This document shows positions 3,204-62,516 of a stretch of 64,000 nucleotides of DNA, in pieces. Source of the stretch: Candidatus Terrybacteria bacterium RIFCSPHIGHO2_01_FULL_48_17 (lineage in GTDB: Bacteria; Patescibacteriota; Minisyncoccia; Terrybacterales; 2-01-FULL-58-14); NCBI GenBank assembly GCA_001822835.1, contig MHSS01000015.1, positions 2,113 to 66,112 on the forward strand, given 5' to 3'. The notes beneath the pieces were generated by a model. That model was not told where the DNA came from. It did not search any database and saw only the letters and a list, made by a program, of their open reading frames with translations. The translations under genes were made by a program, and so were the position numbers. Each line of letters opens with the position of its first letter. The first letter of the stretch is position 1.

Positions 3204-3860
3204 TTATTTTTTCAATAGATATCCGACTCGACCAGGAAGACGCTCGAGCTTACCTGCCGCAACGAGCCGCGCGATAATACGAGTTACGGTTTCGCGCGCA
3301 AGTCCGACTTTTTGTGCAATTGCGTCATGCGTAAGATAAGGCAAGCGCACAGAACCATCCGATTGTTGGTTGGTTCCTACCCGAGTCAATTCCCTAAGAA
3401 CCTTACTTGCCGCATCGCCGGCTAGGGCATCAGCAAGCTTTTCTTCAGCATCACGCAACCGTTGTGCAACAAGTTTAAGCGTTCGCAAAGCGATCTCGGG
3501 ATGCTGGGCAAGAATTGCCTCAAGGTCCTTTCGGGAAACGATACATAATTTTGTGAGGCCTTCGGCCACAAAAAATCCAGGTGGGGGCTGTTCGGCAAGA
3601 TCAGCAAAAATTTCCCCTGGTCGAATCGTAGCAAGCGTTATGGTTCTCCCCTGTTCGGTAATTTTAAAATGAAGCGCCCCTTCTTCTACGAAAAACGCTC
3701 GGCCTTTTGCCGAAACAATCCCAAGATCGGGACGGCGGGGAAAAATCGATTCACCATCCCTGCAAATATGTTCAACCGCCAAATGCATCAATGCATCCAA
3801 CATGTCTTTGGGAGGATCTCGCAACAAAACTACAGAACGCACCACTTCAAGACGTACCAT
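3204..3860 (-). CDS. Crp/Fnr family transcriptional regulator
   Basis: 218 aa. The N-terminus has a cNMP-binding beta-roll pattern and the C-terminus an HTH (ETVTRIIARL). SD AAGGGA sits 4 nt before the ATG. Confidence 0.8.
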   Translation of the reverse strand: MVRLEVVRSVVLLRDPPKDMLDALMHLAVEHICRDGESIFPRRPDLGIVSAKGRAFFVEEGALHFKITEQGRTITLATIRPGEIFADLAEQPPPGFFVAEGLTKLCIVSRKDLEAILAQHPEIALRTLKLVAQRLRDAEEKLADALAGDAASKVLRELTRVGTNQQSDGSVRLPYLTHDAIAQKVGLARETVTRIIARLVAAGKLERLPGRVGYLLKK

Positions 3861-5688: not shown

Positions 5689-7191
5689 CTAAAAACAGGA
5701 AATAAACTGAAGGGCAAAATTAAATGGAATATTAGATGACGATATATTAAGTTTAGGAGATACTTTGGTCGTAAACAAAGCCGAGTCGTTGATGCGCTCG
5801 TGAATGGATAAATATGCTTCGTCGGTATCTGCAATGCCGGTGATTGAAACACGAGCATCTTGCTGAATTGTTAATTGCTGTAATTGTATGCCCTGGCCGA
5901 GTATCGCGTTTTCTATCCGCGGCAATATATCGGCAAAAGAACAACGAGTGTTTTGTTGAAATGCTTGTCGGGCTATAGCTACAGCACTATTAAACTCTTG
6001 CGCCTGCCCAACAAGCTCTGTAACTTCAGGATTTGTCTTTGCCTGAAGCGCGTCATTGGCCGCCTTTTCTTGAATTGTTACAATTGCAAACGTTGCGGCA
6101 AATATGATGGCACTCACCGCTACACCCAGCGCAATTGTATTTCCCGCAAACCTGATAAAAAATTCCGAGACACTTCGAGAATATGCTTCTTCGGTACGCA
6201 CGGACATAAGATTAACCAAATGATCCTGGCTTCGAGGTATAATTCCCCTCAACGAAGCCCCTCTAATGGCCGCTTTAGAAAGTTCGTGCTCTATGGTGGC
6301 AAAGCTTACGGTAATTCCCAACTGCTCAAGCTCTTGTATCGCCTTTATGGTTGCATCATCAATAAGGCCATCTATCAACATACGACGCGTTGCAATGTGT
6401 TTGGTATGATCTTCGATTTTTAAAAACCGGACAAGCGTAGTCAGCTCGCGCGCAATCATTGCCGCCCGCTCCTCTGGTGTCACTGAATCAATAATCACAT
6501 GATGCGGAAACCTCACTGCATCTCCCTCGATCGCTGCGGCAAGCACTGCATCGGAAAATAGATACGCGACAAAGCCCGGACGGGCAGGATCTTGGGTAAG
6601 CCCGCGGGCCACGGAAAGCATAAGCGGTTCCGCGGCAACCACCCGCAATCCCGCAGAGTGCGCTGCAACAAGATACGGCTCAACGTCTTGTTTCCGCGCT
6701 GCTATAACTACATATTCCTTCATGGCTTCCGTGCCCTCTTGTGTGTTGTGCGCGACCAATTGCCAGTCGATAAATGCTTCTTTTGGCGAAACAGGAAGCA
6801 TGCTCTCTGCCTCCAAACGAAGCATTGAATCAATATCCTCGTTTCGTGTACCAGGAGGAATCGTAACCGTTTTTGCAAAAAGCGGAAGGACGGGCAATGA
6901 GAGTACGACGCTATGAGTGGATAAGGGCATTGGTTTTGCTTTTGTGATTGCCTCTTTCAATGCCATTTCAACTGCTTTCGCATCGATAAGTTTACCGGAA
7001 GAGATGCTGCCAGGCGGCAAAGGTACAGCGCCCTCAGTAACTACTGCCGGTGGAAGATTGGGACCCTGGACAATAAGCTCTGCGACACGAACCCGCGCTT
7101 CTTCAATGGCCACACCGGCGATATGCTCGTGGCCTTGTACGGCCGTAATCAACGCATCAATATATGTTTTTCCAGGAAATCGGAATTTCAT
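5689..7191 (-). CDS. type IV pilus assembly protein PilM fused to PilN
   Basis: 500 aa. The N-terminal region has an actin-like ATPase fold pattern (PilM), followed by a TM helix and a PilN-like coiled-coil/periplasmic domain. Confidence 0.7.
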   Translation of the reverse strand: MKFRFPGKTYIDALITAVQGHEHIAGVAIEEARVRVAELIVQGPNLPPAVVTEGAVPLPPGSISSGKLIDAKAVEMALKEAITKAKPMPLSTHSVVLSLPVLPLFAKTVTIPPGTRNEDIDSMLRLEAESMLPVSPKEAFIDWQLVAHNTQEGTEAMKEYVVIAARKQDVEPYLVAAHSAGLRVVAAEPLMLSVARGLTQDPARPGFVAYLFSDAVLAAAIEGDAVRFPHHVIIDSVTPEERAAMIARELTTLVRFLKIEDHTKHIATRRMLIDGLIDDATIKAIQELEQLGITVSFATIEHELSKAAIRGASLRGIIPRSQDHLVNLMSVRTEEAYSRSVSEFFIRFAGNTIALGVAVSAIIFAATFAIVTIQEKAANDALQAKTNPEVTELVGQAQEFNSAVAIARQAFQQNTRCSFADILPRIENAILGQGIQLQQLTIQQDARVSITGIADTDEAYLSIHERINDSALFTTKVSPKLNISSSNIPFNFALQFISCF

Positions 7192-7215
7192 ATAGTATTG
7201 TATCCTTTCTCCATA

Positions 7216-9729
7216 TTAACGATTTCGTTCGCCAGGGACAAATGAAGGTTCTGGTTTTAGCGGTTCTGCAAGACGGGAACGGCGCAAAATTGCTTCCTCA
7301 ATTGCTGCGCGCGGATGGCCGAATCGCGTACGAGATAATTCCCGCAAAGAACGAATACGGTCCGCACTAAGTTGCATGGGTCTGGCTATACGGATATTAA
7401 AGGGACGCTCAACTCGTCCTGATACCAAAAGTCGCACATATGCATTGAAATTTTCGATGTTTACCAGATCATCTTCACCAAATACTGGAGCGAATTGTTT
7501 TACCAAAAATTCAGCATCTTTCGGGCCTATCCGAAACGACACCAAAGATCCGACATTTCCGAATACCGCCTCACGAATAGAATCGGAAAGTTGGGCAATA
7601 AACTGGTGTGCCAAAACCATATTGAGCCGATACTTTCGTGCCTCGGAAAGAATGGTTGCGATCGAATCGGTAGTAAAATTCTGGAACTCATCAATATAGA
7701 GATAGAAATCGCGACGCCCTTCTTCAGCGATATCCGCGCGTCCCATGGCAGCCATTTGCATCTTTGCGACCAAGATGAGTCCTAATAAGCTTGAATTCAC
7801 TTCCCCTACGCGTCCTTTTGAGAGATTCGCGATGAATATCTTACCCTGATCCATAAGATCCCGGAGATTAAATCCCGATCGCTGCTGCCCAATGATATTT
7901 CGCATCATCTCATTTTCAACAAAACGACCGACTTTTGATATCAAATAGCCAAGCATTTCTGATTTATGAAATTCGGTTGTTTTTGCCATTTCTTTTTCCC
8001 AGAAGGCCCGAACCATGGGGTCGGTTACCTTCGGCAACAATTGCCGCAAATATGCCTCATCTGTAAAAATACGAGGAATTTCAACGATAGTGCCTGGGTT
8101 TTCGCGATCCGCCATAAGTGTTAACATGGCATTTCGCATATTATGTTCAAACATCGGCCCAATAACTTCTGGGGGAAACAGCTTCATGAAAATCGCAATC
8201 ATTTCCTGAACGGCAAAATCCTTTTGTTCTGGACTAGACCATTCAAGCATATTTAGACCAACCGGTCTTTCCATATCTGCAGGATCAAAATAAACTACAT
8301 CTTCCGCGCGTTCTGACGGAACCATACCAAGCACCGCTTCTGCCAAATCGCCATGGGGATCTACTACCGCCACTCCGTTACCTGCAATGAGGTCTTGGGC
8401 AATGAGATTACGAAGAAATGTTGTTTTCCCTGTCCCGGTCTGCCCCACAACATATAAATGCCGGCGCCTATCTTCCGATGCCAGGCGCACCTTTGTCTCA
8501 ATGCCGCGGTATGTATTTATGCCAAGTTCAAGCCCCTGGGCCGGCAAATTTACCGGGGGGGCTGCTGGTTTTGCCTTCACAACTTTCACCTTTGGCGTTT
8601 CTAATGCCACGCTTGGAAAATGGAAAAGGGAGGTCAACTCTTCCGTGCTACATAAAAAAGAAGCGGCCGGATTGAACGTTCTAAATGAATAGCGGTAAAT
8701 AAGATCCCTTAATGCCCTATTTTTCGTGTTAAAAAACCGAACGGAATTAAGATGCGGTGTATGGTATTGGGAAAATGCGGCCTCCAGATCTTCAAGCATC
8801 TGATCCGCTCTCGCCTGATGGGGTGCCGAAGTAATGATACGAAGATTTGTTTCAAACATCGGCTTTGCGGCCTTTTGTTCCAGCGCCTTAACGATTTCCT
8901 GGATAAGAGGCGTGACTGGTTGAAAAGATTCTGCAAAATATGGCGTTGCGGCACGGCGCCGGGCTTCGGGCGTTCCTTCGCGCGGCTGTGGCATCATTTG
9001 ATAGGATTTCGCCGACGACTTTCCCCCGCGGAGCATTGCAGCCGCTTGCCCCCACAAGGATAATTCAAAACGCGCGCGCTCAAAAGAATGGCCCGCTTTT
9101 TGCATTTGCCGCGCGATACGACGCCCACGTGTTGCTTTGTTTTTCCCTGCGGGACGAATAATAAGCTGTATTGCAGCACCCTCCCCCTCTGCTTCAAGTT
9201 TCGACAATGCACCGGTGAGCGCTCGCAAAGGATCCGATTCCAGAATTTGATAGGTCTTCAACGGCAACGCCCAATCATGTTCGAACCGTGCGTTCGCGCC
9301 CGCGTGCGCCCCCTGTGGATGAAAAATATTATAATCACCAACACGTTCTACTTCGGCAGTCGGGTACACGGCATGAATTGCCTTTTCAACAGGGGCAACC
9401 CATCTATGAGGAGAAGCAACAAAAAATGCAAGTTCCTCTCCGACATTAGGCAATGCAATTTCAAGCGCAACGTAAGGTTGTCCGGTAAACCACGTATGCA
9501 TACCTTGCTCATGAATATGAAAGAGGGCTGCATACAACTGCTCCATAACCGCAATTTTTTCTCGCTCTTTTGCAACATCCTCCCGCTCAAAAACACGAGG
9601 CAAAGAAACCCGCAATAATTGGTAATTGAGTGAACGCTCTAAAACAAAGCGGCGATCCCAACGAGAGAACCACCAAAAAACTCCGCCTGCAAGCGCCACG
9701 ATGATAGACAATACGATAAAAGTTATCAT
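7216..9729 (-). CDS. membrane-anchored FtsK/HerA-superfamily P-loop ATPase, TraD/TraG/VirD4 coupling-protein-like
   Basis: 837 aa. N-terminal TM helix; Walker A GQTGTGKTT near residue 430; Walker B LYIDEFQNF (FtsK/T4CP-like DEF). The roughly 400-aa N-terminal domain has no obvious family. Confidence 0.55.
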   Translation of the reverse strand: MITFIVLSIIVALAGGVFWWFSRWDRRFVLERSLNYQLLRVSLPRVFEREDVAKEREKIAVMEQLYAALFHIHEQGMHTWFTGQPYVALEIALPNVGEELAFFVASPHRWVAPVEKAIHAVYPTAEVERVGDYNIFHPQGAHAGANARFEHDWALPLKTYQILESDPLRALTGALSKLEAEGEGAAIQLIIRPAGKNKATRGRRIARQMQKAGHSFERARFELSLWGQAAAMLRGGKSSAKSYQMMPQPREGTPEARRRAATPYFAESFQPVTPLIQEIVKALEQKAAKPMFETNLRIITSAPHQARADQMLEDLEAAFSQYHTPHLNSVRFFNTKNRALRDLIYRYSFRTFNPAASFLCSTEELTSLFHFPSVALETPKVKVVKAKPAAPPVNLPAQGLELGINTYRGIETKVRLASEDRRRHLYVVGQTGTGKTTFLRNLIAQDLIAGNGVAVVDPHGDLAEAVLGMVPSERAEDVVYFDPADMERPVGLNMLEWSSPEQKDFAVQEMIAIFMKLFPPEVIGPMFEHNMRNAMLTLMADRENPGTIVEIPRIFTDEAYLRQLLPKVTDPMVRAFWEKEMAKTTEFHKSEMLGYLISKVGRFVENEMMRNIIGQQRSGFNLRDLMDQGKIFIANLSKGRVGEVNSSLLGLILVAKMQMAAMGRADIAEEGRRDFYLYIDEFQNFTTDSIATILSEARKYRLNMVLAHQFIAQLSDSIREAVFGNVGSLVSFRIGPKDAEFLVKQFAPVFGEDDLVNIENFNAYVRLLVSGRVERPFNIRIARPMQLSADRIRSLRELSRTRFGHPRAAIEEAILRRSRLAEPLKPEPSFVPGERNR

Positions 9730-10225: not shown

Positions 10226-11779
10226 ATGGGAAAACATACGGTATGGGCGCTGTTGGGCATCATTATTATTGGTGCCATTTTCCGTTTGTTAAATCTCACC
10301 ACTACCCCACCCGGCCTTTGGCCGGATGAGGCCGTAAATGGGCTCAATGCCCTTGAGGCGTTGTCCCAAGGCGACTTTAAAGTATTTTATACCGACAATT
10401 TCGGGCGTGAGGGACTTTTTATTAACCTGCAGGCCTTTTCTATAAGCATTTTTGGCGCAACATCGTGGGCACTCCGCTTTGTGGCGGCTGTTATAGGCAT
10501 CTTTACAGTAGGTGCCCTTTTTTTTGTGGGACGAGAACTTTTCACAAAAACATATCATCCTCACATGACAGCCCTTGTGGCTTCCTTGTTGGGCGCCGTT
10601 TCGTTTTGGCATGTAAACTTTTCGCGAATCGGATTTCGCGCGATTCTTTTGCCGCTTTTTGCATCACTTGCGGTCTGGTGGATGATTTCCGCCATGCGCA
10701 ACCGTTCGCAAATAGCGTTTGCGGCATCTGGATTTATGTACGGAATTTCTCTTTCAACATATATCTCCGCCCGTTTTCTGCCTATTCTTGCGCTCGTGTG
10801 TTTTGTTTATGACCTGTGGCGGGAGCATAAAAACAAGAACGGAGCCCAATGGAAGTCCTTTGTCATTGTCTGGGGATGGTGTTTTATCGGGTTTTTTGTC
10901 GCGGCACTACCGCTTTTGGGATATTTTGCTTATCATCCGGCAGATTTTTTTGGGCGCGCAAATGATGTAGCCGTTTTTGCAGCAGCAGATCCTATCGCCG
11001 AATTTACGCGCTCACTCACAAAAACATTAGGCATGTTTCATGTGGCGGGTGACAATAATTTTCGACATAATCTTGGAGGATCGCCTCAGCTTGATTTATT
11101 GAGCGGTATTCTTTTCCTTACGGGCATCGCAGTTGCTCTATCGCTATTACTGCGCCTGCGAAACGCAAAGGGAAGAAGATTTTATATGGTGGTACTTTTT
11201 GTGTGGTTTGGCCTCATGCTCCTTCCGGGAATCCTTTCTCAAGAAGGCGTACCGCATGCTTTAAGAACACTTGGCGCGATTCCCCCGGTGATGTTAATTG
11301 CGGCACTGGGGTTTGGTTGGCTTGCAGAAAGAACGACGAAAATGTTGGGACGTCAGTGGTCACACATCGCATTAATGGGTTTACTGACTATCGTTTCTGT
11401 TATTAATTTTTACCAATATTTTTTTGTATGGGCCTCACATCCGGAAACACAAAAAGCGTTTCGGTATGATCTTACTGTTATGGCAAAGGTGCTGCGAGAA
11501 CAGCACATATATACTCAAAAAGTTGTTGTCATCAACCAGCCGGGCGCAACGGTTGAAAATTCTTTTATTGAGCTCGCTCCCATACGCTTTTTAGATTATG
11601 CGGATTCGACCATTATCTACAAAGAAAGCACACGGCTTGCGGAAATTATCCCTCAATTTGAAAAAACCATGCTCGTTCCACTCCAAGCAAATGATCAGGA
11701 ATTAGAAGCTTCACTGCGAGCGCTTTTCCCAACGGTAAAACGCAAAGAAACACAAGGAATAGAATACTTCTCACTATAA
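10226..11779 (+). CDS. glycosyltransferase family 39 (ArnT/PMT-like) membrane protein
   Basis: 517 aa with many TM helices and an N-terminal PGLWPDEA motif typical of GT-C/GT39 enzymes. Confidence 0.75.
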   Translation: MGKHTVWALLGIIIIGAIFRLLNLTTTPPGLWPDEAVNGLNALEALSQGDFKVFYTDNFGREGLFINLQAFSISIFGATSWALRFVAAVIGIFTVGALFFVGRELFTKTYHPHMTALVASLLGAVSFWHVNFSRIGFRAILLPLFASLAVWWMISAMRNRSQIAFAASGFMYGISLSTYISARFLPILALVCFVYDLWREHKNKNGAQWKSFVIVWGWCFIGFFVAALPLLGYFAYHPADFFGRANDVAVFAAADPIAEFTRSLTKTLGMFHVAGDNNFRHNLGGSPQLDLLSGILFLTGIAVALSLLLRLRNAKGRRFYMVVLFVWFGLMLLPGILSQEGVPHALRTLGAIPPVMLIAALGFGWLAERTTKMLGRQWSHIALMGLLTIVSVINFYQYFFVWASHPETQKAFRYDLTVMAKVLREQHIYTQKVVVINQPGATVENSFIELAPIRFLDYADSTIIYKESTRLAEIIPQFEKTMLVPLQANDQELEASLRALFPTVKRKETQGIEYFSL

Positions 11780-11788
11780 ACCTAAGAT

Positions 11789-13648
11789 ATGCTTTGGCGC
11801 TTTTTTAAACTCGACATGTTGCTTGCGGCATTTCTTTTAACGGTAATGGCCGTTTCGGCATTTAGTTCGTCCTGGGGGGATACGCTTACGTATGACGAGG
11901 ATGCTCATATTGGAGCAGCGGTTTCTTATATTACCCAAAAGGACATGCGCCTCAATCCCGAACATCCGCCACTTGTTAAGGATCTCGCGGCGCTCCCGCT
12001 TCTTTTTATTCCAAACCTTATTGTGCCGACTAATCACCCTTCGTGGATCGATGAAGTAAACGGGCAATGGAATTTTGGAAAGGCGTTTCTGTTCGAATCT
12101 GGAAATGATGCCGACCTTATCGTGCGATTAGCACGTATTATGCCGATGGTTTTGATGCTTTTGCTTGGCGCGGTTTTGTTCTGGGTGGTACGCGAAATAG
12201 GAGGAACGCTCTCCGGACTTTTTGCGCTTGCGCTTTTTGTTTTTTCACCAACTATTCTTGCACATGGGCGTTTGGTCACGACAGACGTTGCGGCGGCATT
12301 AGGGGCGTTTCTTGCAACCTATTTGCTCCTGCGGTACTTCGCAAAGCCAACATGGAAACGTCTTTTTGCTGCCGGAATTGCATTTGGGATTGCGGAGGCA
12401 TTAAAATTCTCACTTATTTTATTAATTCCCTACTTTGCCGTACTTGCTTTTGCGTGGTGGCTGTTTTCTTTCATATCTTTTAAAAAAGATGTGGCGAAAT
12501 CGTTGTGTATATTTTTAGGAGGAACGGTGCTTGTCGGCATCATTGGCTATATGGGTATCGTTTATCCCCTTTATATGTGGCATGTCTGGGATTATCCGCA
12601 GAGCAGACAAGTTGCAGATATCCGTGCAACGCTTGCCAATAATCCAAACCAAACACTCACTACAATTCCCGAACAAATGGCCCGTAACTTTTTGTTACGT
12701 CCCCTTGCCCAATACGCTTTTGGGATTACCATGGCCACACAGCGGGTGGCGGGCGGCAATACAACGTATTTTTTGAGAGAAGTTTCCGCAGAAGGACGAT
12801 GGTATTATTTCCCGATAGTGTTTGCTCTCAAAGAACCGACGGCAATGTTTGCTCTTGTATTACTTGCGCTTATGACGGGCCTTTATGCCTTCCGAATGGC
12901 AATATCCCGCTCTTTATCGGGATCGCAGGGTTTGAGGAACGCGATTTTAGAAATTGTGAAGTGGAAACGTAAACATTTCGTGCATATCGCGTTTCTTCTC
13001 TGGATTCTTTTTTATCTTGCCGTTTCAATCAAAGGCAATCTCAATATCGGCATACGGCATCTTATTCCTATTTATCCCTTTTTGTTTGCACTCACCGCAA
13101 TTGGGCTCGCGGTATGGCTTAAGCGCGAACGGCATGGTAAACCCGGAGGGTTTCGCACTATTCTCGAAAATACCAGGGGGCTTTTCGCCAGCGGAGCAAA
13201 AGGAGCTGTAGTCGCTGTTTTTTTCGGAATGCTTGCAGTTGGTACGATTCGCGCGTGGCCATACTATCTAACCCATTTTAATATCCTTGGGGGAGGATCC
13301 GAAAATGGATACGTCTACGTCGTTGACTCAAATCTTGATTGGGGTCAGGATCTTAAGCGTTTGGCCAACTTTGTTGAAGAAAACAACATAAAGAAAATTG
13401 CAATCGACTATTTTGGATTAGCACCCCCAGAATATTACATAAAGAATGCGGTAATAGAACATTGGTGGGCAGAAAGAGGACGGCCGTCGGGATGGTTTGC
13501 GGTTTCCGCGACCTTCCGACAGGGACAGTGCGCACGCCCTGGACAAAAATTCCAGGGTCTAACCAGACAATACTGTTTTCTCAACGCCTATACCCCTATA
13601 GCCGTCATTGGTCATTCAATATTTGTATATAATTTTTCGCCTCAATAA
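11789..13648 (+). CDS. glycosyltransferase family 39 / phospholipid-carrier-dependent glycosyltransferase, paralogue
   Basis: 619 aa polytopic membrane protein with YDEDAH near the N-terminus (GT-C DE motif), directly after the first GT39 gene. Confidence 0.7.
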   Translation: MLWRFFKLDMLLAAFLLTVMAVSAFSSSWGDTLTYDEDAHIGAAVSYITQKDMRLNPEHPPLVKDLAALPLLFIPNLIVPTNHPSWIDEVNGQWNFGKAFLFESGNDADLIVRLARIMPMVLMLLLGAVLFWVVREIGGTLSGLFALALFVFSPTILAHGRLVTTDVAAALGAFLATYLLLRYFAKPTWKRLFAAGIAFGIAEALKFSLILLIPYFAVLAFAWWLFSFISFKKDVAKSLCIFLGGTVLVGIIGYMGIVYPLYMWHVWDYPQSRQVADIRATLANNPNQTLTTIPEQMARNFLLRPLAQYAFGITMATQRVAGGNTTYFLREVSAEGRWYYFPIVFALKEPTAMFALVLLALMTGLYAFRMAISRSLSGSQGLRNAILEIVKWKRKHFVHIAFLLWILFYLAVSIKGNLNIGIRHLIPIYPFLFALTAIGLAVWLKRERHGKPGGFRTILENTRGLFASGAKGAVVAVFFGMLAVGTIRAWPYYLTHFNILGGGSENGYVYVVDSNLDWGQDLKRLANFVEENNIKKIAIDYFGLAPPEYYIKNAVIEHWWAERGRPSGWFAVSATFRQGQCARPGQKFQGLTRQYCFLNAYTPIAVIGHSIFVYNFSPQ

Positions 13649-13649
13649 A

Positions 13650-15383
13650 ATGGCTACGATTAATCGTTCCAAAGAGCAACTCCAAGAATTACAAAACGAT
13701 ATTGCGGCAAATATCCGGCTGCGAATCGCAATTATCGTTTCGTATGGAGTGCTATTTGGTTTATTGCATCTTTTGGCAGTGCGTCAAAGTCCAGTATCAT
13801 GGGCCGTTCTTGGGGCTGCGCTCGTTACGACATTTATTATTTGGCTGCTTTTTATTCGTTTTCCCATTTCTCCAGATCCAGAACGCCTTGCCGATGCCTA
13901 CTTCTGGTTCTTAATGGCCGATATGGTCGGAGTAACCATAGGATTGATGCTGGGAGGAGGATTTGGGATTAACGGAGTCCTTATACCGCTTATCTATGTT
14001 GTGCACGGTTCTCTTGTATTCCCAAGCGTAATCCAGCGCACCGTGGTATTTATTGTAGCCACGGGCTTGTATTTTGCGGCTTCGGCCGCTGAATTTGCAG
14101 GAATCGTCAAGGTTGACTATGTTTTTCCGTTTCTGGAGGATGCAGCAAAAGATCCAGGAATCTTCTTCACCAAGCTAGTCATTACCACCGTTGCCATCCC
14201 GATTTTGGGTTTTTACACGAATATCTATGCCAACCGGCTCCAGATAAGAAGAAAGGAGCTCTGGCGAGAACGGGATTACTTAGCAACAATTCTTGCAAAC
14301 CTTACCGCAGGAATCATTGTGTTAGGAGAAAACCAAAAAATCGTCTACACAAATGCCATCGCTGCCCGTCTGCTTGGCGAACCAAAAGAGATAAAAATCG
14401 GGGCTGATCTTTCAACTATCGGGCTGCTTTCGCGAGAACAAAAGTTACGGGAAGAATTTCTAGTACTTATTCAAAGCGTCTTAGATAAGAAAGAGTCGCG
14501 CTCAGCCACTCTCTCGATGGGGCCTCTCTTGGTTTCTGTTACCCCTATTCCCATTCCCCCGCCCACCATCACCGCATTGCGAACCATCCTTGTCTTGCAA
14601 GACGTAACGCGGGAAAAACTACTCGACGCGCTCAAATCCGATTTCGTTACCATTGCCGCCCACCAATTGCGCACACCCTTATCAACCTTGAAGTGGACCA
14701 TCAACGAGCTTCTGAACGAAAGTTTCGGGTCTGTCGCGGAAGAGCAGGCACAAGCGCTGCGCAATGCCTTCAGCACAACGGAAAACATGATTCATCTTCT
14801 AGGGGATCTACTTGAATCAGTACGTTTTGAGGAAGGAAAATTCGCATACGAATTCAAACCAATCGTCTTGGAGGATCTTGCCCAAAAAGTCATTGCGGAT
14901 ACCACATCGCTTGCAAAATCAAGAAGGGTAGAGCTTTCTCTCGCGCTCCCCACTCCCCCTCTTCCTCCAATCGTATGCGATCCTGAAAGAATTAATTTTG
15001 TGCTCACAACTTTTGTAGACAATGCAATCACCTATAACCACGAAGGGGGCAAGGTACAGGTTATCCTCGAAGCAAAGCCGGACGAAGTCATTGTCGAGGT
15101 GCAAGACAATGGCATTGGAATACCCCAACGAGAGCAAACGATGCTGTTTACCAAATTCTTTCGTGCTTCAAACGCCATCCGAACAGAAGCGACAGGATAC
15201 GGCCTTGGACTTTACATCGCACGCAATATCGTCGAAGGGCATGGAGGAAATATGTGGATGCGATCGGAAGAAGGGAAAGGGTCAACGTTTGGATTCAGCT
15301 TGCCGCTTAATCCGGAACGCCTCCCGAGAGGACCCCAAGAACTTATTGCAGCACGTTTACGCATACCGATGCGACCAAAATAA
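13650..15383 (+). CDS. sensor histidine kinase (multi-TM N-terminus, HisKA and HATPase_c domains)
   Basis: H-box HQLRTPL, N-box NAITYN and G-boxes DNGIGI/GYGLGL. ATG at 13650 is 1 nt after the upstream stop; the track start at 13608 overlaps the upstream gene. Confidence 0.8.
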   Translation: MATINRSKEQLQELQNDIAANIRLRIAIIVSYGVLFGLLHLLAVRQSPVSWAVLGAALVTTFIIWLLFIRFPISPDPERLADAYFWFLMADMVGVTIGLMLGGGFGINGVLIPLIYVVHGSLVFPSVIQRTVVFIVATGLYFAASAAEFAGIVKVDYVFPFLEDAAKDPGIFFTKLVITTVAIPILGFYTNIYANRLQIRRKELWRERDYLATILANLTAGIIVLGENQKIVYTNAIAARLLGEPKEIKIGADLSTIGLLSREQKLREEFLVLIQSVLDKKESRSATLSMGPLLVSVTPIPIPPPTITALRTILVLQDVTREKLLDALKSDFVTIAAHQLRTPLSTLKWTINELLNESFGSVAEEQAQALRNAFSTTENMIHLLGDLLESVRFEEGKFAYEFKPIVLEDLAQKVIADTTSLAKSRRVELSLALPTPPLPPIVCDPERINFVLTTFVDNAITYNHEGGKVQVILEAKPDEVIVEVQDNGIGIPQREQTMLFTKFFRASNAIRTEATGYGLGLYIARNIVEGHGGNMWMRSEEGKGSTFGFSLPLNPERLPRGPQELIAARLRIPMRPK

Positions 15384-20774: not shown

Positions 20775-22034
20775 TTACGAGATACGCTCAAAATTAACAT
20801 AGGGACGCAAGATATCAGGTACGACTATGGATCCATCGTTTTGCTGGTAATTCTCGATAATGGCGATAAGCATACGACCAATAGCAATCGCAGTTGCATT
20901 AAGCATGTGCACATAGTCGGTTTTGCCGGCTTTGTTTTTATATCGCACATTAATCCCTCGCGCCTGAAAATCTGTGGTATTTGAGGCCGAGTGCGTTTCG
21001 CGATACTCTCCCTTCCCGCCATTCTGCCCCGGAAGCCACGTTTCAATATCAAACTGGTGAGCATCGGTCCATCCCATATCGCCCGTGCATATCTCTACCA
21101 CGCGATACGAAAACCCAAGTCCCTGCACTAATCGTTCCTGCCATGCAACAAGACGCTCGAGTTCCTCTTCAGAATCTTCTGGCTTGGCGAAAACAAACAT
21201 TTCAAGCTTATCAAATTGATGCACGCGCAAAATCCCTTTTGTATCTTTTCCGTAAGAACCAGCTTCCCTGCGAAAACATGTTGAGAACCCAAGATACCGC
21301 TTGGGCAGCTCGCTTTCTTTCAGGATCTCTCCGCTATGCATAGGACCAATAGTGTGCTCTGCGCTCCCCGCAAGATAAAGATCATCTTTTTGCAGATAAT
21401 ACCGATCCTCTTCTTGATCCGCGGCAAGACGCCCCATGCCACGAAACATTTCCGGCTTTATCATGGAAAGTGCGATAACAGGCGTAAAACCCTCAGACAA
21501 CAGCAAATCCTGACCATAGCGAATAAGCGCAAATTCAAGAAGCGCTACTTCGTTTTTTAAAATGCCAAACCGCGTGCCAGCCACTTTTGCACCCCGTTCC
21601 ATATCAATAAGATCAAGATCTTCTGCGAGCGTAAGATAATTTTTTGGTTTAAACGAAAAATCTATTTTTTCTCCCCCCTCGCGCACCACTTTGTTGTCGC
21701 ATTCATCTTTCCCCTCAAGCATTGATACCAACGGAAGGTTGGGCAACTGTAAAAGCGTTTGCCCGAGCTTTTGCGAAAGATCTCGTTGTGTTGGTTCAAG
21801 ATTCTTAAGACGCACCTTAATATCTTCGGCATCTTTTTTCTTGTCATCGTCTCCCTCCGCAATATCCTTGCTTAATTGATTCAGCACCGCGCGCAAATCT
21901 TCAAGTTGTTTAAGTATCTGGCGATGTTCCGCATCAAGGGCAAGCAAAGCATCAATATCGACATCAGCACCTTTTCTGCGAAGGCCATCTTTCACAATAT
22001 TTGGGTTTTCCCGGATGAATTTTATGTCTAACAT
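20775..22034 (-). CDS. serS: serine--tRNA ligase
   Basis: 419 aa. N-terminal coiled-coil arm plus class II motifs (FRRE, GLGFSYR). Confidence 0.9.
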   Translation of the reverse strand: MLDIKFIRENPNIVKDGLRRKGADVDIDALLALDAEHRQILKQLEDLRAVLNQLSKDIAEGDDDKKKDAEDIKVRLKNLEPTQRDLSQKLGQTLLQLPNLPLVSMLEGKDECDNKVVREGGEKIDFSFKPKNYLTLAEDLDLIDMERGAKVAGTRFGILKNEVALLEFALIRYGQDLLLSEGFTPVIALSMIKPEMFRGMGRLAADQEEDRYYLQKDDLYLAGSAEHTIGPMHSGEILKESELPKRYLGFSTCFRREAGSYGKDTKGILRVHQFDKLEMFVFAKPEDSEEELERLVAWQERLVQGLGFSYRVVEICTGDMGWTDAHQFDIETWLPGQNGGKGEYRETHSASNTTDFQARGINVRYKNKAGKTDYVHMLNATAIAIGRMLIAIIENYQQNDGSIVVPDILRPYVNFERIS

Positions 22035-22091
22035 AAATACTACAAAATACGGATCTGTACGAATATACGAATAGGTTTTAACATATAACGA

Positions 22092-55308: not shown

Positions 55309-55378
55309 TTGCGGGGGCGGGAATCGAACCCGCTTAGTTGGCTTATGAGACCAACAAGATACCAACCTGCCCCCCGCG
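55309..55378 (-). tRNA. initiator tRNA-fMet (CAT); C1:A72 mismatch; no CCA encoded
   Basis: 5' CGCGGGG and 3' CCCCGCA-A, as in E. coli tRNA-fMet. Anticodon loop CTCATAA, T arm GCGGG-TTCGATT-CCCGC. My hand fold of the D arm is short, so the 5' coordinate may be off by a few nt. Confidence 0.7.
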
Positions 55379-57942: not shown

Positions 57943-60021
57943 TCAACGCCCTTTCACGCGCCGCAAGAATTCCCCCTCGTCAATAATTTCTATACCAAGT
58001 TTTGTGGCCTTTTCGTGTTTTTCACCAGGATCTTTCCCCGCAACGACGAAAGAGGTTTTAGGGCTTACGACCGTTGTTACGGTCGCGCCATGTTCGCGCG
58101 CGCTTTGCTGCGCCTCGTCCCGCGTCATGGTTTTAAGTTCTCCGGTAAATATAACAGTGGTACCCGAAAGCGATTGTTTTTTATCTTGGATTTTTGGCGC
58201 GATTGCCCGCACGCCAACCCGCTGTAGTTTCCTAAGCAATGTTCGATTCTGCGCACTTTCAAACCACAAAGCGATCGAGCGCGCAACGGTAGGACCGATA
58301 TCGGGAATTTGCTGAAGATCCTTCTCCCCCGCAGCGGAAAGATTCTCTATGGTTTTAAAACGTTGCGCAAGAATACGGGCAGTTTCATCTCCAACATGCA
58401 AAATGCCCAGCGCTTTAATAAGTCGTTCAAACGGCACTTTCTTTTTTGCTTGAAGTGCCGCAGCAAGTTTATTTGCCGAAATTTCCGCAAATCCTTCCAC
58501 TTGCAAAAAACCATCTTTGCTTAAAGTAAAAAAATCGGCGGCATCTTTTATAAATCCCCCGTCGATAAGCTTATCCACGGTTTCGGGCCCCAACCCCTCG
58601 ATATCAAATGCGCCCTTTGAAACAAAGTAGTAAAAATGTTCACGCCGAAGCGCTGGACATTTTTTGTTTTGACACCGGATGAATACGCCGTCGCGGACCG
58701 TGGGTGAACCGCACTCCGGACATCGCCGAGGCGTTGCTTTAGCCCGCGCAGCTTTTGGCCGAAGAGACGGCAAAACACGCACCACTTGTGGAATGACATC
58801 ACCGGCCCTGCCGACAATCACAGTATCGCCCTCGCGGATATCGAGTTTTTTAAGCTGATCAAAATTATGAAGTGTCGCATGTGTAACCGTCACTCCGCCA
58901 ATAGATACGGGGCGCAATTTGGCCACAGGAGTTAAAACGCCGGTACGTCCTACAAAAATATTAATTTTCTCAACAACGGTTTCTGCCTCGCGCAATTCAA
59001 ACTTATATGCAATCGCTCCCCGCGGAGCTTTTCCTACCACACCAAGGCGGCGGAACGCGCTATTATCATTTATCAAAACGACGATGCCATCAATCTCGTA
59101 AGGCAGGCCGTCGCGATTCTTTTCCCACGAATTGCGGAAGGAAACAACATCATGCGGGTTTTTGGCGAAACGGTTGTGGGTATTGGTTTTAAAACCAAGC
59201 GCACGAAGGAGGGCATGCGTTTCCTCGTGCGTCTTTTGACCAAGATCGGTTACTAAATCGTAGGCGAACGAATCAAGATTCCGGGATGCGGCTACCTTTG
59301 GATCAAGCTGACGGATTGATCCTGCAGCAATATTGCGGGGATTAGCATATAGGGACTGGCTGTGCTTTTTTTGTTCCCGATTGATTGCCGCAAATTCTTT
59401 CTTCCCTAAAAAAACTTCACCGCGAACTTCAAGATGCCGAGGAAATCCCTTTCGTAACTGCTTGGCAAGTTGATGAAAGCCCTCTTTTGCCAAATCCACT
59501 GCTACCTCTTTTGATGTACGCAGGCCTAACGGGATCGCTTCAATTGTTTTAAGGTTATGCGTTACATCTTCTCCAACAACACCATCGCCCCGTGTAGAGC
59601 CCACAGAAAACAAACCGTTGTTATATTCAAGCGAAACGGCGAGGCCGTCTATTTTTAGCTCAAGAAAAAAACCCTCGCGCAAGACCTCTGGAACAAGTTT
59701 TGAAATGCGTTCTACCCAAGAAAAAAAATCGCCTTCAGAGAACACGTCGTTGAATGAAAGCATGGGTACCGCATGCCGGACTTTGGTAAACTCTGCCCGC
59801 GCTTTGCCGCCTATGCGTTGGGTTGGAGAGTCGGACGTAACAAATTCGGGAAATTGATATTCAAGCTGCTCAAGTTCTTTTTTGAGCGAATCGAGTGCCG
59901 CATCGGAAATCTCTTGTTGATCCAGAACATGGTACAAGTACCGATGGCGATTGATCTCTTTTTTGAGATTCTCGATCCTCTCTCGTACCCTCTGTTTTGT
60001 GAGTTTTTTCCCCATATCCAT
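57943..60021 (-). CDS. ligA: NAD-dependent DNA ligase
   Basis: KxDG adenylation motif (LKIDGLAV), OB fold, 4-Cys zinc finger, HhH motifs and a C-terminal BRCT domain. TGTTATAATAAACG lies immediately upstream of the ATG. Confidence 0.9.
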   Translation of the reverse strand: MDMGKKLTKQRVRERIENLKKEINRHRYLYHVLDQQEISDAALDSLKKELEQLEYQFPEFVTSDSPTQRIGGKARAEFTKVRHAVPMLSFNDVFSEGDFFSWVERISKLVPEVLREGFFLELKIDGLAVSLEYNNGLFSVGSTRGDGVVGEDVTHNLKTIEAIPLGLRTSKEVAVDLAKEGFHQLAKQLRKGFPRHLEVRGEVFLGKKEFAAINREQKKHSQSLYANPRNIAAGSIRQLDPKVAASRNLDSFAYDLVTDLGQKTHEETHALLRALGFKTNTHNRFAKNPHDVVSFRNSWEKNRDGLPYEIDGIVVLINDNSAFRRLGVVGKAPRGAIAYKFELREAETVVEKINIFVGRTGVLTPVAKLRPVSIGGVTVTHATLHNFDQLKKLDIREGDTVIVGRAGDVIPQVVRVLPSLRPKAARAKATPRRCPECGSPTVRDGVFIRCQNKKCPALRREHFYYFVSKGAFDIEGLGPETVDKLIDGGFIKDAADFFTLSKDGFLQVEGFAEISANKLAAALQAKKKVPFERLIKALGILHVGDETARILAQRFKTIENLSAAGEKDLQQIPDIGPTVARSIALWFESAQNRTLLRKLQRVGVRAIAPKIQDKKQSLSGTTVIFTGELKTMTRDEAQQSAREHGATVTTVVSPKTSFVVAGKDPGEKHEKATKLGIEIIDEGEFLRRVKGR

Positions 60022-60498: not shown

Positions 60499-61122
60499 CT
60501 AATCACATCCGTCTCTTATCTGCCGAAGCGAAACGGTTGTCTGGAGTAACAGGGGTTGCACACCAACGGCCTGCCGGGGGCTTGTCTCAAGCCCAAGGGT
60601 TACGCGCGGCTGCCTATTATCGCTATCGCCACATCCGAACGCAGATGCCTGAAATCGATTAACCTGTACAACTGTAGCGTCGCCTGCGAGGTCAAGAAAC
60701 CATGTTCGAATAGGGAACGAAGATCCGTTCGCCCGACGCTCCTGGAGGCGCCGGGTACCGCCATCGTAGTGATACCTCACAAGGCAATCAGTCGGATCAG
60801 AGGCGCTGCAACCGGAAAAGCCAAACGCATCATCAAGCATCGGCTGCTCATCCATTATTATAAAATCCTGTGGTGTATTGTCAGCCATGGCTTCGATATC
60901 GGAAACTCTTATGGCGCGCGTCATTTCATCCATGGCGTAACGGGCATTATCCACGACGAGCGATTCCACAAACGCTTGCCGCTGGATACGAAGCACACCG
61001 ACAAAAAGCGCAGACAAGCCGACGACAGCCGTCACAAAAATACCCATGCTGACAATAACCTCGATGAGGGAAAAACCGAGTTTCGGATTTCGGGTTTCGG
61101 ATTTCGGGTTTTTGAATATCAT
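60499..61122 (-). CDS. prepilin-type N-terminal cleavage/methylation domain protein (minor pilin/pseudopilin)
   Basis: 16-aa leader MIFKNPKSETRNPKLG followed by FSLIEVIVSMGIF. Its ATG overlaps the upstream stop (ATGA at 61119-61122). Confidence 0.65.
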   Translation of the reverse strand: MIFKNPKSETRNPKLGFSLIEVIVSMGIFVTAVVGLSALFVGVLRIQRQAFVESLVVDNARYAMDEMTRAIRVSDIEAMADNTPQDFIIMDEQPMLDDAFGFSGCSASDPTDCLVRYHYDGGTRRLQERRANGSSFPIRTWFLDLAGDATVVQVNRFQASAFGCGDSDNRQPRVTLGLETSPRQAVGVQPLLLQTTVSLRQIRDGCD

Positions 61123-61712
61123 GGCGTTGTTCCAAACCAATTCCATAATACGTCTTCGGCAACGACCTCCCGCTCGTTGCCTGGGCAGGATGCCAAACCA
61201 GATGAACACCACGTTACTATCGACTCCACCCGAAAAGAAATACTGTCGTTGGGAGGAGGTGGGGTTGAAATCCGGATTCTCCTACGAAAAGGGGTGTCGA
61301 TTCCGGAAGAATATTGATAAAATCTATTTCCATCAATCTCAAGAGCCGGATTAGAGCCCGGCGCAAGAAGATTGGGATTATCATACTGGGCACGATAATC
61401 GCCGTCGCATAATCTGTCTCGCCATGATTGAGGTGGGCTAGGTGCGCAATTTGCGCCATTATCATTATCCCTGCTTCCGGCCGCGGTTCGCAGCCAATTT
61501 GAATCGCGCATGCTGCGTACAATCTCAATCCCCTCCTGCGCTAAATTTGCTGCAACAAGTTCCTGCCGTCCAAGGCGTGCGGTTTTTAACGAATTTGCTG
61601 CAAGGGTCCAAACCGCAATTCCTGCCATCGCAAAGATGGCTAACGCAATAATTACTTCAATAATAGAAAAGCCAGCTGGTATCGTTTTCTTGCTACACAT
61701 ACTAAAAGTCAT
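61119..61712 (-). CDS. prepilin-type N-terminal cleavage/methylation domain protein
   Basis: ...KKTIPAG|FSIIEVIIALAIF. Start chosen at ATG 61712; alternatives are 61700 and GTG 61730. Cys pairs in the C-terminal region. Confidence 0.65.
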   Translation of the reverse strand: MTFSMCSKKTIPAGFSIIEVIIALAIFAMAGIAVWTLAANSLKTARLGRQELVAANLAQEGIEIVRSMRDSNWLRTAAGSRDNDNGANCAPSPPQSWRDRLCDGDYRAQYDNPNLLAPGSNPALEIDGNRFYQYSSGIDTPFRRRIRISTPPPPNDSISFRVESIVTWCSSGLASCPGNEREVVAEDVLWNWFGTTP

Positions 61713-61755
61713 CTCAAAAACCCCGTTCACCTTGCTGCGCTAAGCCCCAGTACTA

Positions 61756-61868
61756 CGAAATACGAATCGGTACGAATATACGAATACCTTATTGTTTCCG
61801 TTTTGTTCCTCATTCGTATATTCGTAAAATGTTCGTACTTCGTAGTATTCTTTGTACTTCGTAGTGTG
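61756..61868. repeat. imperfect roughly 45-bp inverted repeat built from TTCGTA/TACGAA iterons, between a pilin gene's stop and the pilin operon start
   Basis: Left arm ctacgaaatacgaatcggtacgaatatacgaata, a loop, then right arm cattcgtatattcgtaaaatgttcgtacttcgtag... Confidence 0.6.
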
Positions 61869-62516
61869 CTATTCTTCAATAAATACAGCCCCCACTGCAT
61901 TCACCAATACCGTGCGACTTGCTGCCCCACGCACCAACGAAATACGAACCGCGGGAAGAACAGTGCTGCCCGCAGTTTTGCAATTTGAGCCGCGCGACCC
62001 AATGCCTGTCGTTTCATCATACAAAAACGTATTGGGGTTAGGGGGGCAGAAAAAAAATGTGAGAGTATCCGCGTTGGTTATGGTGCTTGGCGGAGAACCA
62101 AGATCGCACAAAGGCATAGAACACTCAAAAATTTGGGCGTTTTGTGCTCTAACCTCGCTGCGGAAAGTGCGCGAGTCAACGAATTCGCCCGCGGTCTCGC
62201 TATAGGTCATGTCATTATCCAAATCGGCAAAAAGCGTCGTTTGGGTATTAGCGCCGCCGCCCGGATCATCGGAAACAACAACTCCATACCCAAAGGGCAC
62301 GACCCCTTGAATTTCTGCGGAGCTTGCGGCAAGCGCCTGGGCTTTACGAATATCCAATGTCAAAAGCTGCGCCTCCCTGCGTACTGCTTGTTCTTCCCGC
62401 CCCCTGCGCAATGTTACGCTCACTACCCCCATAAGGATCGTGGCGATTGCGATAACAACGATAATTTCGATCATTGAAAATCCTGCTCGATGACCGCCGG
62501 AAAACAATCGCCGCAT
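61869..62516 (-). CDS. prepilin-type N-terminal cleavage/methylation domain protein (GspH/FimT-like)
   Basis: ...HRAG|FSMIEIIVVIAIATIL. Start chosen at ATG 62516; alternatives are 62540 and GTG 62561. Confidence 0.6.
   Translation of the reverse strand: MRRLFSGGHRAGFSMIEIIVVIAIATILMGVVSVTLRRGREEQAVRREAQLLTLDIRKAQALAASSAEIQGVVPFGYGVVVSDDPGGGANTQTTLFADLDNDMTYSETAGEFVDSRTFRSEVRAQNAQIFECSMPLCDLGSPPSTITNADTLTFFFCPPNPNTFLYDETTGIGSRGSNCKTAGSTVLPAVRISLVRGAASRTVLVNAVGAVFIEE

Follow-up and report, generated by a model that had tools for sequence, protein, structure and literature searches.

The type IV pilus cluster of Candidatus Terrybacteria RIFCSPHIGHO2_01_FULL_48_17 contains, between two pilin-like genes, a divergent pair of repeat arms that are each assembled from four direct copies of the hexamer TTCGTA. 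The pair was analyzed within a 64,000-nt stretch of contig MHSS01000015.1, referred to below as the window, which also contains a solitary arm immediately upstream of serS, the gene for seryl-tRNA synthetase. The three arms, one divergent pair and one solitary copy, belong to a dispersed intergenic DNA element whose four-unit arm was found at more than 170 public loci, mostly from Patescibacteria (the candidate phyla radiation, or CPR), with some of the records labeled Bacteroidota. We tentatively interpret the arms as an operator-type array for a putative oligomerizing DNA-binding protein that would act at gene boundaries.

Architecture of the arms in the window

Nine exact TTCGTA hexamers, four on the minus strand and five on the plus strand, lie within positions 61754-61863, together with a TTTGTA variant at 61851. 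They form two arms of ∼36 nt each, in which unit 1 is located inward and the TTCGTAG end faces the flanking genes, i.e., the arms are divergent. The proximal arm (61751-61786) is oriented toward the minor-pilin-like operon (193, 207, and 133 aa), and the distal arm (61811-61847) is oriented into the 3′ end of the upstream pilin gene. An extra pair of units (61851-61866) stops 2 nt short of the stop codon of that gene (61869-61871). The start-to-start spacing of the units is 8, 10, and 7 bp in the minus-strand arm and 8, 11, and 7 bp (followed by 12 and 7 bp) in the plus-strand arm. The solitary arm (22038-22073) is followed by TTT and then by the ATG of serS (22034), which places the end of the arm 3 nt before the start codon.

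Across the 64-kb window, TTCGTA was observed 55 times, compared with 28.8 ± 5.6 times in shuffled sequences. The second-best match to the proximal arm in the window reached only 21/36 positions. A sensitive scan of the window for four heptads with flexible spacing detected no further arms, and no shuffled sequence attained such a score. Chance and simple sequence are ruled out as the origin of the arms by the shuffles, the second-best match, and the abundance of the strict pattern in public data (see below).

An earlier description of this DNA, the sequence-only reading, had reported an inverted repeat of about 45 bp between the pilin genes, composed of helically phased units 8 to 11 bp apart, and a half-site abutting serS that matched at 32 of 36 positions. 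The inverted repeat is real, although its arms measure ∼36 nt and are separated by a 24-nt gap, and the unit spacing ranges from 7 to 12 bp. The near-identity of the serS site likewise stands, at 33 rather than 32 of the 36 positions and with the three nucleotides TTT between the arm and the ATG. The helical phasing was mistaken, as 8/10/7 bp is not a 10.5-bp phase. What had been termed a palindrome corresponds to two divergent arms, and the gap between such arms varies among copies of the element.

Table 1. Arms of the repeat element and adjoining genes in the window
Feature	Position	Strand	Description
Proximal (left) arm	61751-61786	-	TATTCGTATATTCGTACCGATTCGTATTTCGTAGTA; four direct TTCGTA units, spacing 8/10/7 bp, then GTA
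Inter-arm gap	61787-61810		24 nt; differs among element copies
Distal (right) arm	61811-61847	+	CATTCGTATATTCGTAAAATGTTCGTACTTCGTAGTA; mirror of the proximal arm, spacing 8/11/7
Extra unit pair	61851-61866	+	TTTGTACTTCGTAGTG; 19-nt tandem duplication of distal-arm units 3-4
Solitary arm	22038-22073	-	33/36 identical to the proximal pilin arm; no partner
First gene downstream of the pair	61119-61700	-	193-aa pilin-like protein with N-terminal motif GFSIIEV; followed by 207- and 133-aa pilin-like genes
Upstream pilin-like gene	61869-62516	-	215 aa, weak N_methyl hit; stop codon abuts the distal arm
serS (seryl-tRNA synthetase)	20775-22034	-	in the same-strand run aspS-(74 aa)-ham1-serS

A dispersed family with a strict unit pattern

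The loci and contigs fetched for comparison are designated by L numbers (L008, L123, etc.). A scan with the 14-mer TTCGTATATTCGTA, covering one genome per species, returned at least 119 loci. Approximately 50 of the loci listed continue with n3-5 and ATTCGTA-(A/T)-TTCGTA-G, that is, with units 3 and 4, which were absent from the query. The strict four-unit pattern, comprising 26 fixed bases, was present in at least 120 metagenome contigs, where far fewer than one would be expected. The consensus of the arm is (A/T)TTCGTA-nA-TTCGTA-n3-4-A-TTCGTA-(A/T)-TTCGTA-G, corresponding to four ATTCGTA heptads at offsets 0, 8, 18-19, and 25-26, and the trailing G is present in 69% of the arms that were selected without regard to it. 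The arm-bearing lineages of Patescibacteria include the Moranii-, Uhr-, Zambryskii-, Portnoy-, Yanofsky-, Staskawicz-, Falkow-, Nealson-, and Doudnabacteria, the Paceibacterota, and the Saccharibacteria. Further records comprise some metagenome-assembled genomes (MAGs) labeled Bacteroidota and a few co-assembly MAGs labeled Gammaproteobacteria.

No match to the strict pattern was found in 2.9 million viral contigs (IMG/VR), and BLAST searches of the pair against plasmid and phage collections (PLSDB and INPHARED) likewise returned none. A phage or plasmid origin was rejected on these grounds. The literature was searched in full text for the sequence read in either orientation, for motifs of CPR promoters or regulons, and for direct repeats of TTCGTA; within the limits of the library searched, no published description was found, and the family is apparently undescribed. 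Tandem growth of the repeats was seen at two of the fetched loci: six copies of the arm with a 41-bp period are present at L017:7090-7364, in a MAG labeled Bacteroidota, and a run of ∼16 units extends one side of a pair that adjoins pilin and pilD genes at L171:2646-2830.

Arms are positioned by the ends of genes

The sequence-only reading had placed the motif upstream of operons, and a comparison with the ends of genes bears this out more generally, as the motif is almost exclusively intergenic and is positioned by gene ends. In a first set of loci, 20 pairs were divergent and none was convergent. Overall, 65 non-redundant divergent pairs and essentially no convergent ones were identified. 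Of the 126 arms that fit the strict pattern, 58% are accompanied by a divergent partner no more than 120 nt away and 2% by a convergent one, and 37 to 42% of the strict arms lack a partner. The gap between paired arms ranges from 0 to 126 nt and shows no helical periodicity among the 65 non-redundant pairs. The outer end of the arm is located 4 to 12 nt before the start codon in 63/88 arms with a downstream open reading frame (ORF), and the outer end of antisense arms is located 1 to 9 nt after the stop codon of the gene into which the arm points in 22/28 cases. The usual order between two genes on the same strand is stop codon, distal arm, gap, proximal arm, and start codon. Solitary arms are found in the sense and antisense orientations at a ratio of 28:12.

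Multiple copies are present in several genomes, and copies within one genome share their polarity relative to gene direction (the window genome, L008, and L128). The element occupies 4/6 spacers of the pilus cluster in L008. In the ribosomal protein operon of L128, pairs are located between the genes for ribosomal proteins S3 and L16, L14 and L24, and S8 and L6, with 3 to 5 spacers occupied in 14 kb, and single arms precede the genes for ribosomal proteins L24 and L6 in other genomes as well. In total, the window genome possesses at least five arms at three loci in ∼76 kb. One of these loci is a second divergent pair (L123:9087-9181) located on the same contig, ∼630 to 730 nt past the right end of the window, between pilC and the gene for the 201-aa major pilin. 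Its proximal arm, TATTCGTATATTCGTACTGATTCGTATTTCGTAGTA, differs by one base from the proximal arm in the window. The major pilin gene has a canonical extended −10 promoter, TGgTATAAT, and the arm ends ∼40 nt upstream of it, at about −55 to −90. In L041, arms flank both sides of a TGaTATAAT promoter located before pilB, and canonical terminators adjoin the arms. No canonical promoter was found hidden in the gap between paired arms, where −10-like hexamers are no more common in the sense than in the antisense orientation.

Heptads and spacing are conserved, and spacers are not

Variation among copies of the element indicates which of its features are maintained. The spacer between units 2 and 3 was identical in both arms of the pair in none of 39 oriented pairs (0/39). 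The C/T variation at position 3 of the unit is non-compensatory, with 17 C-A mismatches compared to 10 G-U pairs in the sense RNA. Sense and antisense arms are equally conserved, and both keep the trailing G. Because the heptads and their spacing are conserved, whereas the spacers and the complementarity of the arms are not, the pattern argues for recognition of the arm as double-stranded DNA by a putative protein and not as an RNA hairpin. An RNA hairpin under selection was rejected, as the compensatory pattern is absent.

Gain and loss among close relatives

The arm preceding serS is retained at the identical offset (..TTCGTAGTATTT-ATG) in L245, whose SerS is 71% identical to that of the window. 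It is absent in L246 (SerS 68% identical), where the spacer is only 23 nt, and from the 21-kb syntenic regions of two other Terrybacteria (L250 and L251). In L249 (PilD 74% identical), the spacer between pilC and pilA lacks the whole ∼100-bp pair while its flanks align, and no arm is present in the 24 nt that follow the stop codon of the ortholog of the 215-aa pilin before the contig ends. The positional conservation at orthologous genes that a shared operator had been taken to imply therefore holds in part, for serS in the 71%-identical relative, and fails at the pilC-pilA and serS sites of other close relatives. The element is accessory and patchy and has been gained and lost. Separately, at L244:1-250 the 110 nt that precede serS, with the arm among them, match the window at every position, although the encoded SerS shares only 83% identity with that of the window; this mismatch of identities points to a chimeric assembly or to recent recombination at the arm.

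Genes adjoining the arms

The 80 proteins encoded downstream of arms fall into 105 Pfam families, the most common being the PilB-type ATPase (T2SSE/MshEN; n = 5), followed by DNA polymerase III alpha, class II tRNA synthetases, ribosomal proteins L6 and L24, archease, and glycosyltransferases. Small neighbors include IF-1 (6 cases), ribosomal protein S10 (4), receiver-only response regulators (4), ribosomal proteins S8 and S13, and GroES. Overall, the most common neighbors are type IV pilus genes (especially pilB), ribosomal protein genes, chaperonins, and glycolysis genes. Of the arm loci, 18/171 include type IV pilus genes, compared with 0/68 control loci, which contain only a chance match to the 14-mer; we estimate that a random window of such size from a CPR genome would meet a pilus cluster ∼2% of the time. 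The association with pilus genes is a real enrichment and is not exclusive. A regulator that is encoded beside the arms and controls its own gene was ruled out, as the neighbors that were clustered and scanned belong only to housekeeping, pilus, and receiver-only response regulator families.

Candidate functions of the element

The interpretation that we prefer, while holding it with less than even confidence, is that of an operator-type array. A sequence-specific protein would read the arm as double-stranded DNA, and several protomers would load on the four direct heptads in the manner of ribbon-helix-helix proteins of the omega, ParG, and MetJ type or of BldC on 7- to 9-bp direct repeats. 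With respect to the start codon downstream, the arm spans about −40 to −6, or else it flanks a canonical promoter, and the second arm directly follows the upstream stop codon. The bound protein would then modulate transcription over the gene boundary, either by occluding or assisting downstream initiation or by blocking read-through from upstream. The anatomy of the arms, the existence of the family, its positional rules, the conservation of units without that of spacers, and the gain and loss among relatives are observed, and we infer protein binding, the type of protein, and the sign of its effect. In the window genome, the targets would be the major pilin, the minor pilins, and serS.

Repeat-array operators are composed of two or more contiguous short direct repeats with a period of 7 to 9 bp at or near a promoter, and the arm has four units spaced by 8/10-11/7 bp that overlap or flank promoter regions. 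Its position relative to canonical promoters varies, being upstream at pilA, on both sides before pilB (L041), and over the −40 to −6 zone at serS, and this variable placement is as expected of operators. The retention of the serS arm at an identical offset in the 71%-identical relative and the non-random set of neighbors, with its enrichment in pilus genes, also support an operator. The sequence-only reading had proposed a shared operator of two operons or, alternatively, an unusual promoter. Both remain the leading functional readings, although an operator private to two operons is too narrow a description of an element with hundreds of copies that is located at unrelated genes and often within operons.

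Several observations weigh against an operator. The high copy density in some genomes, such as L008 and L128, resembles that of a general signal or a repeat family rather than a regulon, and the downstream genes have no common pathway. The 28:12 sense bias of single arms is not predicted for an operator that functions irrespective of orientation. No helix-turn-helix or ribbon-helix-helix family recurs beside the arms, as judged by clustering of 304 neighboring proteins and by Pfam scans of the 80 downstream proteins and 110 small neighbors, and none of the 80 downstream genes encodes a DNA-binding regulator. In L249, the TGgTATAAT promoter and the leader are kept, and the pair amounts to a clean indel right after the pilC stop codon. 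The patchy distribution, even inside the Terrybacteria, is compatible with a mobile repeat as well. The operator, the promoter, and the mobile repeat are not mutually exclusive, and the whole set of features would also be expected of a repeat that first spread and then came to serve as a platform for binding.

A somewhat less probable explanation is that the element is a selfish or neutral miniature inverted-repeat transposable element (MITE), in which the arms would be terminal inverted repeats with four transposase sites each, the solitary arms would be decayed copies, and any regulation would be secondary. Copies would persist only where they are harmless, in the short stretch that separates a stop codon from the ribosome-binding site that follows. 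This explanation, which the sequence-only reading did not consider, stays alive because the element has been gained and lost at orthologous sites: inverted arms are combined with presence and absence at pilC-pilA (the indel relative to L249), and the serS arm is missing in L246, L250, and L251. The arms are always inverted, with the same end outward, and the left and right flanks (1 to 9 nt plus 4 to 12 nt) add up to a normal operon spacer, as if ∼65 to 130 bp had been dropped in. Near-identical units occur in a patchy set of lineages, even in records labeled Bacteroidota; copies of the same genome have arm-specific spacers in common; the unit arrays can expand (L171, L017, and the extra units in the window); and neighbor scans found no associated regulator gene. 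However, no transposase is encoded between or beside the arms among the neighboring proteins and the intervals between distant arms, and the only Y1 transposase genes in the 1.7 Mb of fetched DNA are bordered by GC-rich hairpins of an unrelated kind. The flanks inspected, a limited set of data, show no target-site duplication. The inter-arm sequences are unrelated among copies of the same genome even though the arm spacers are conserved, and no copies are present in the plasmid, phage, or IMG/VR collections. The uniform polarity relative to gene direction within a genome (the window genome, L008, and L128), the enrichment at pilus genes, and the retention of the serS arm at the same offset over ∼29% protein divergence also speak against a MITE.

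It is unlikely that the arm is an unusual promoter, used by an alternative or variant housekeeping sigma factor for mRNAs with no leader or a very short one. Unit 1 would lie at the −35 position, the junction of units 3 and 4 (TA-n-TTY) would lie at −10, and transcription would start a few bases after TTCGTAG; the partner arm would yield an antisense transcript or be a by-product. The placement of the arm fits this layout. The arm ends 4 to 12 nt before the start codon for most sense arms (6 nt for serS), the arm and this distance together cover the footprint of a core promoter at about −40 to −6, and the minimum distance of ∼4 to 5 nt would follow from the need for transcription to start no later than the ATG. 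No Shine-Dalgarno sequence is present between the arm and the serS ATG, although the genome has GGAGG at other genes, and many genes have TATAAT 5 to 8 nt before the ATG. The serS site can be read as TTCGTA-N16-TATTTT-N9-ATG, single arms prefer the sense orientation (28:12), and the downstream genes are typically of highly expressed kinds. In L015, a strong GGAAGGAGG follows the arm, and a start between the arm and the Shine-Dalgarno sequence is plausible there.

The sequence of the arm nevertheless departs from that of a promoter. Sigma-70 promoters have TTGACA-like and TATAAT-like hexamers 16 to 18 bp apart, with A at position 2 and T at position 6 of the −10 element. A consensus scan detected none in 61600-62000 or on the serS side, and the −10 readings are weak, being TATTTT at serS and TATTTC in the pilin arms. 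The arm has no match to the sigma-70 consensus; the would-be −10 mostly ends in C (TAATTC) and lacks the critical final T, and one hexamer would have to be both −35 and −10. Distances from the arm to the ATG range over 4 to 12 nt with no sharp peak, and antisense arms are as conserved as sense arms. Arms are also found upstream of or around canonical extended −10 promoters and between the genes of ribosomal protein operons, and the pilA promoter is present without the element in L249. The promoters used experimentally in the genetics of cultured Saccharibacteria (TM7x tuf and rpsJ) are canonical and have no arms.

In an improbable reading, Patescibacteria would use the divergent pair as a signal dedicated to gene boundaries, in which one abundant factor would bind both arms, halting incoming RNA polymerase at the distal arm and launching a leaderless or near-leaderless transcript from the proximal one. 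Bacteria would thereby have an equivalent of the factor-dependent terminator/promoter elements exemplified by the TTF-I/Reb1 sites in the rDNA of eukaryotes.

Least probable of all is a role in RNA, in which the paired arms of a polycistronic transcript would form a long interrupted hairpin that brings the stop codon next to the downstream start and serves as a processing site, a 3′-end stabilizer, or a means of translational coupling. The window pair folds at −42 kcal/mol (z = −6.8), as any palindrome would, both stem ends lie within ∼10 nt of the stop and start codons, and many pairs are located within operons; but 37 to 42% of strict arms, the serS arm included, have no partner, the intra-arm spacers are never complementary, C-A mismatches are not rarer than G-U pairs, the loop length varies as widely as the inter-arm gap (0 to 126 nt), there is no U-tract, and a purely structural role leaves the conservation of the heptads across classes and phyla unexplained. 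No known RNA family was found in Rfam at gathering or permissive thresholds.

Relationship to known repeat systems

The operators of omega (pSM19035) and ParG (TP228) and the met-boxes of MetJ consist of 4 to 7 conserved bp repeated head-to-tail with a period of 7 to 8 bp, in direct and inverted blocks at promoters, and are bound by cooperative dimers. The element resembles them in that units 1 and 2 are 8 bp apart and units 3 and 4 are 7 bp apart. It differs in that their arrays are private to one plasmid or regulon, with the repressor gene adjacent or autoregulated, whereas the element is dispersed and has no such gene nearby. BldC of Streptomyces, a small MerR-like winged-helix protein, binds two or four direct repeats as head-to-tail protomers (PMC5859096). 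Its consensus is AATTxxxx(C), with the optimized site AATTCGGAC, and the family is widespread in bacteria according to the authors (PMC5859096). Both the optimized BldC site and the unit of the element contain ATTCG. The period of BldC sites is 9 bp, in contrast to 7 to 11 bp in the element, BldC has no rule of divergent pairs, and no BldC-like gene was seen beside the arms.

REP/REPIN-RAYT systems and MITEs such as the Correia elements of Neisseria are similarly extragenic and often located within operons, with inverted doublets of fixed orientation, solitary decayed copies, GTAG/CTAC ends, and variable presence. The 65 divergent pairs, the near absence of convergent ones, and the 37 to 42% of singletons match the doublet organization of REP/REPIN elements. 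A single REP is a hairpin, whereas the arm consists of four direct repeats, and neither a target duplication nor a conserved interior was seen for the element. REP sequences are species-specific, whereas the unit sequence of the element is common to several classes. In REP/REPIN-RAYT systems, each repeat is an imperfect palindrome and the repeats flank the gene of the cognate Y1 transposase. Mobilization of the arms by a RAYT was rejected, as the sequences on either side of the Y1 transposase homologs in L198 and L241 are not arms but GC-rich hairpins of another kind. At L241:2700-3700, a RAYT-like Y1 transposase with its own GC-rich REP-like hairpins (e.g., CCCAGCCATAAATGGCTGGG) is located on an arm-bearing contig, so that two repeat systems coexist there.

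The cin-box recognized by ComX (sigma-X) at streptococcal late competence genes, including the competence pilus operon, is TACGAATA. It is the exact reverse complement of the 8-bp repeat of the element, TATTCGTA, and the element, too, shows an enrichment at type IV pilus genes. A cin-box promoter, which has TACGAATA at about −10 and directed toward the regulated gene, was rejected, since in the element this sequence occurs only on the strand that leads away from the neighboring gene, and the boxes of paired arms would be turned toward one another; the match is a coincidence or at most a lead. The housekeeping promoter of Bacteroidota has TTTG at −33 and TAnnTTTG at −7. Units 1 and 2 read TAnnTTCG, the TTCG of unit 1 is located 19 nt before the TA-n-TTCG of units 3 and 4, and arms occur in records labeled Bacteroidota. 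However, T is replaced by C in the element, the usual 7-bp junction is one base too short, and the window genome clearly uses promoters of the TTGACA/TATAAT type.

Several other classes were rejected directly. A DNA uptake sequence (DUS/USS) requires approximately one copy per kb, including copies inside genes, whereas the element is found at three loci in ∼76 kb, all intergenic. An intrinsic terminator does not fit, as the element contains no terminator-like site and the hairpin is AT-rich and followed by CTGGGGC with no T run; canonical intrinsic terminators exist elsewhere in the window genome. TIGR-Tas arrays, which are known from CPR bacteria, have two alternating 8- to 12-nt repeats, variable 9-nt spacers, 5 to 15 units, and an adjoining Nop-domain gene (PMC12045711). 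The element has one type of repeat, no variable-spacer array, and no adjacent Nop gene. The LexA/SOS motifs of Bacteroidota, GGA-N5-TCC and CTAA-N5-TTAG, differ from the element. Two NrdR-box-like sequences (ACACTACATGTAGTGG and ACACTACATCTAGTAT) were noted upstream of nrdR at L050:5250-5500, on a contig whose arm pair follows ftsZ.

Genomic setting and other features of the window

The pilus cluster is arranged in the order pilM-N-O, a 109-aa gene, pilB, a receiver-only response regulator, pilT, pilC, the 201-aa major pilin, pilD, a 129-aa gene, the 215-aa pilin, the pair of arms, the 193-, 207-, and 133-aa pilin-like genes, and ligA. In the major pilin region (L123:9185-9380), a terminator-like hairpin (AAAACCGCC...GGCGGTTTTG) lies in the leader of ∼140 nt, directly ahead of GGAGG. 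This hairpin is retained in the relative L249 and may be an attenuator that controls pilin expression. In many genes of the window (e.g., ligA at 60021 and those at 10226, 33511, 49478, and 3860), a TATAAT-like hexamer ends 5 to 8 nt before the ATG and no Shine-Dalgarno sequence is present, while GGAGG is evident at others, so that leaderless genes seem to occur alongside leadered ones in the genome.

A 577-aa histidine kinase (13608-15383, plus strand) has no adjacent DNA-binding response regulator, the receiver-only protein of the pilus cluster being the sole response regulator in the vicinity, and a 218-aa regulator of the CRP/FNR family is encoded at 3204-3860 on the minus strand. Apart from the main pilus cluster, the region 5689-9729 (minus strand) encodes a second PilM_2-domain protein (500 aa) beside a TraG/VirD4-like coupling ATPase (called as 443 aa in an 837-aa ORF) and RmuC, and may be a module for DNA transfer or DNA uptake. 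A weak tRNA-Met call at 55310-55377 (minus strand), which scores 36.7 bits compared with 70 bits for the other tRNA-Met and overlaps predicted ORFs on both strands, is possibly degenerate or atypical.

Implications for Patescibacteria

Patescibacteria make up a large share of bacterial diversity and possess few recognizable regulators, and their gene control is almost unexplored. Their type IV pili are central to host attachment and DNA uptake. The element described here is a 32-bp signal of strict architecture that is common to many CPR classes and concentrated at pilus, ribosomal protein, and chaperone genes. Should it prove to be mobile, Patescibacteria would have in it their first reported MITE-like family of wide distribution, as far as literature searches show, and a useful marker of the dynamics of very small genomes. 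If the pair were a gene-boundary signal, it would split long same-strand runs, such as pilus clusters and ribosomal protein operons, into separately controlled units. The element could be used as bait for a putative reader protein, as a marker of transcription units in uncultured genomes, and as a part for genetic tools in transformable Saccharibacteria.

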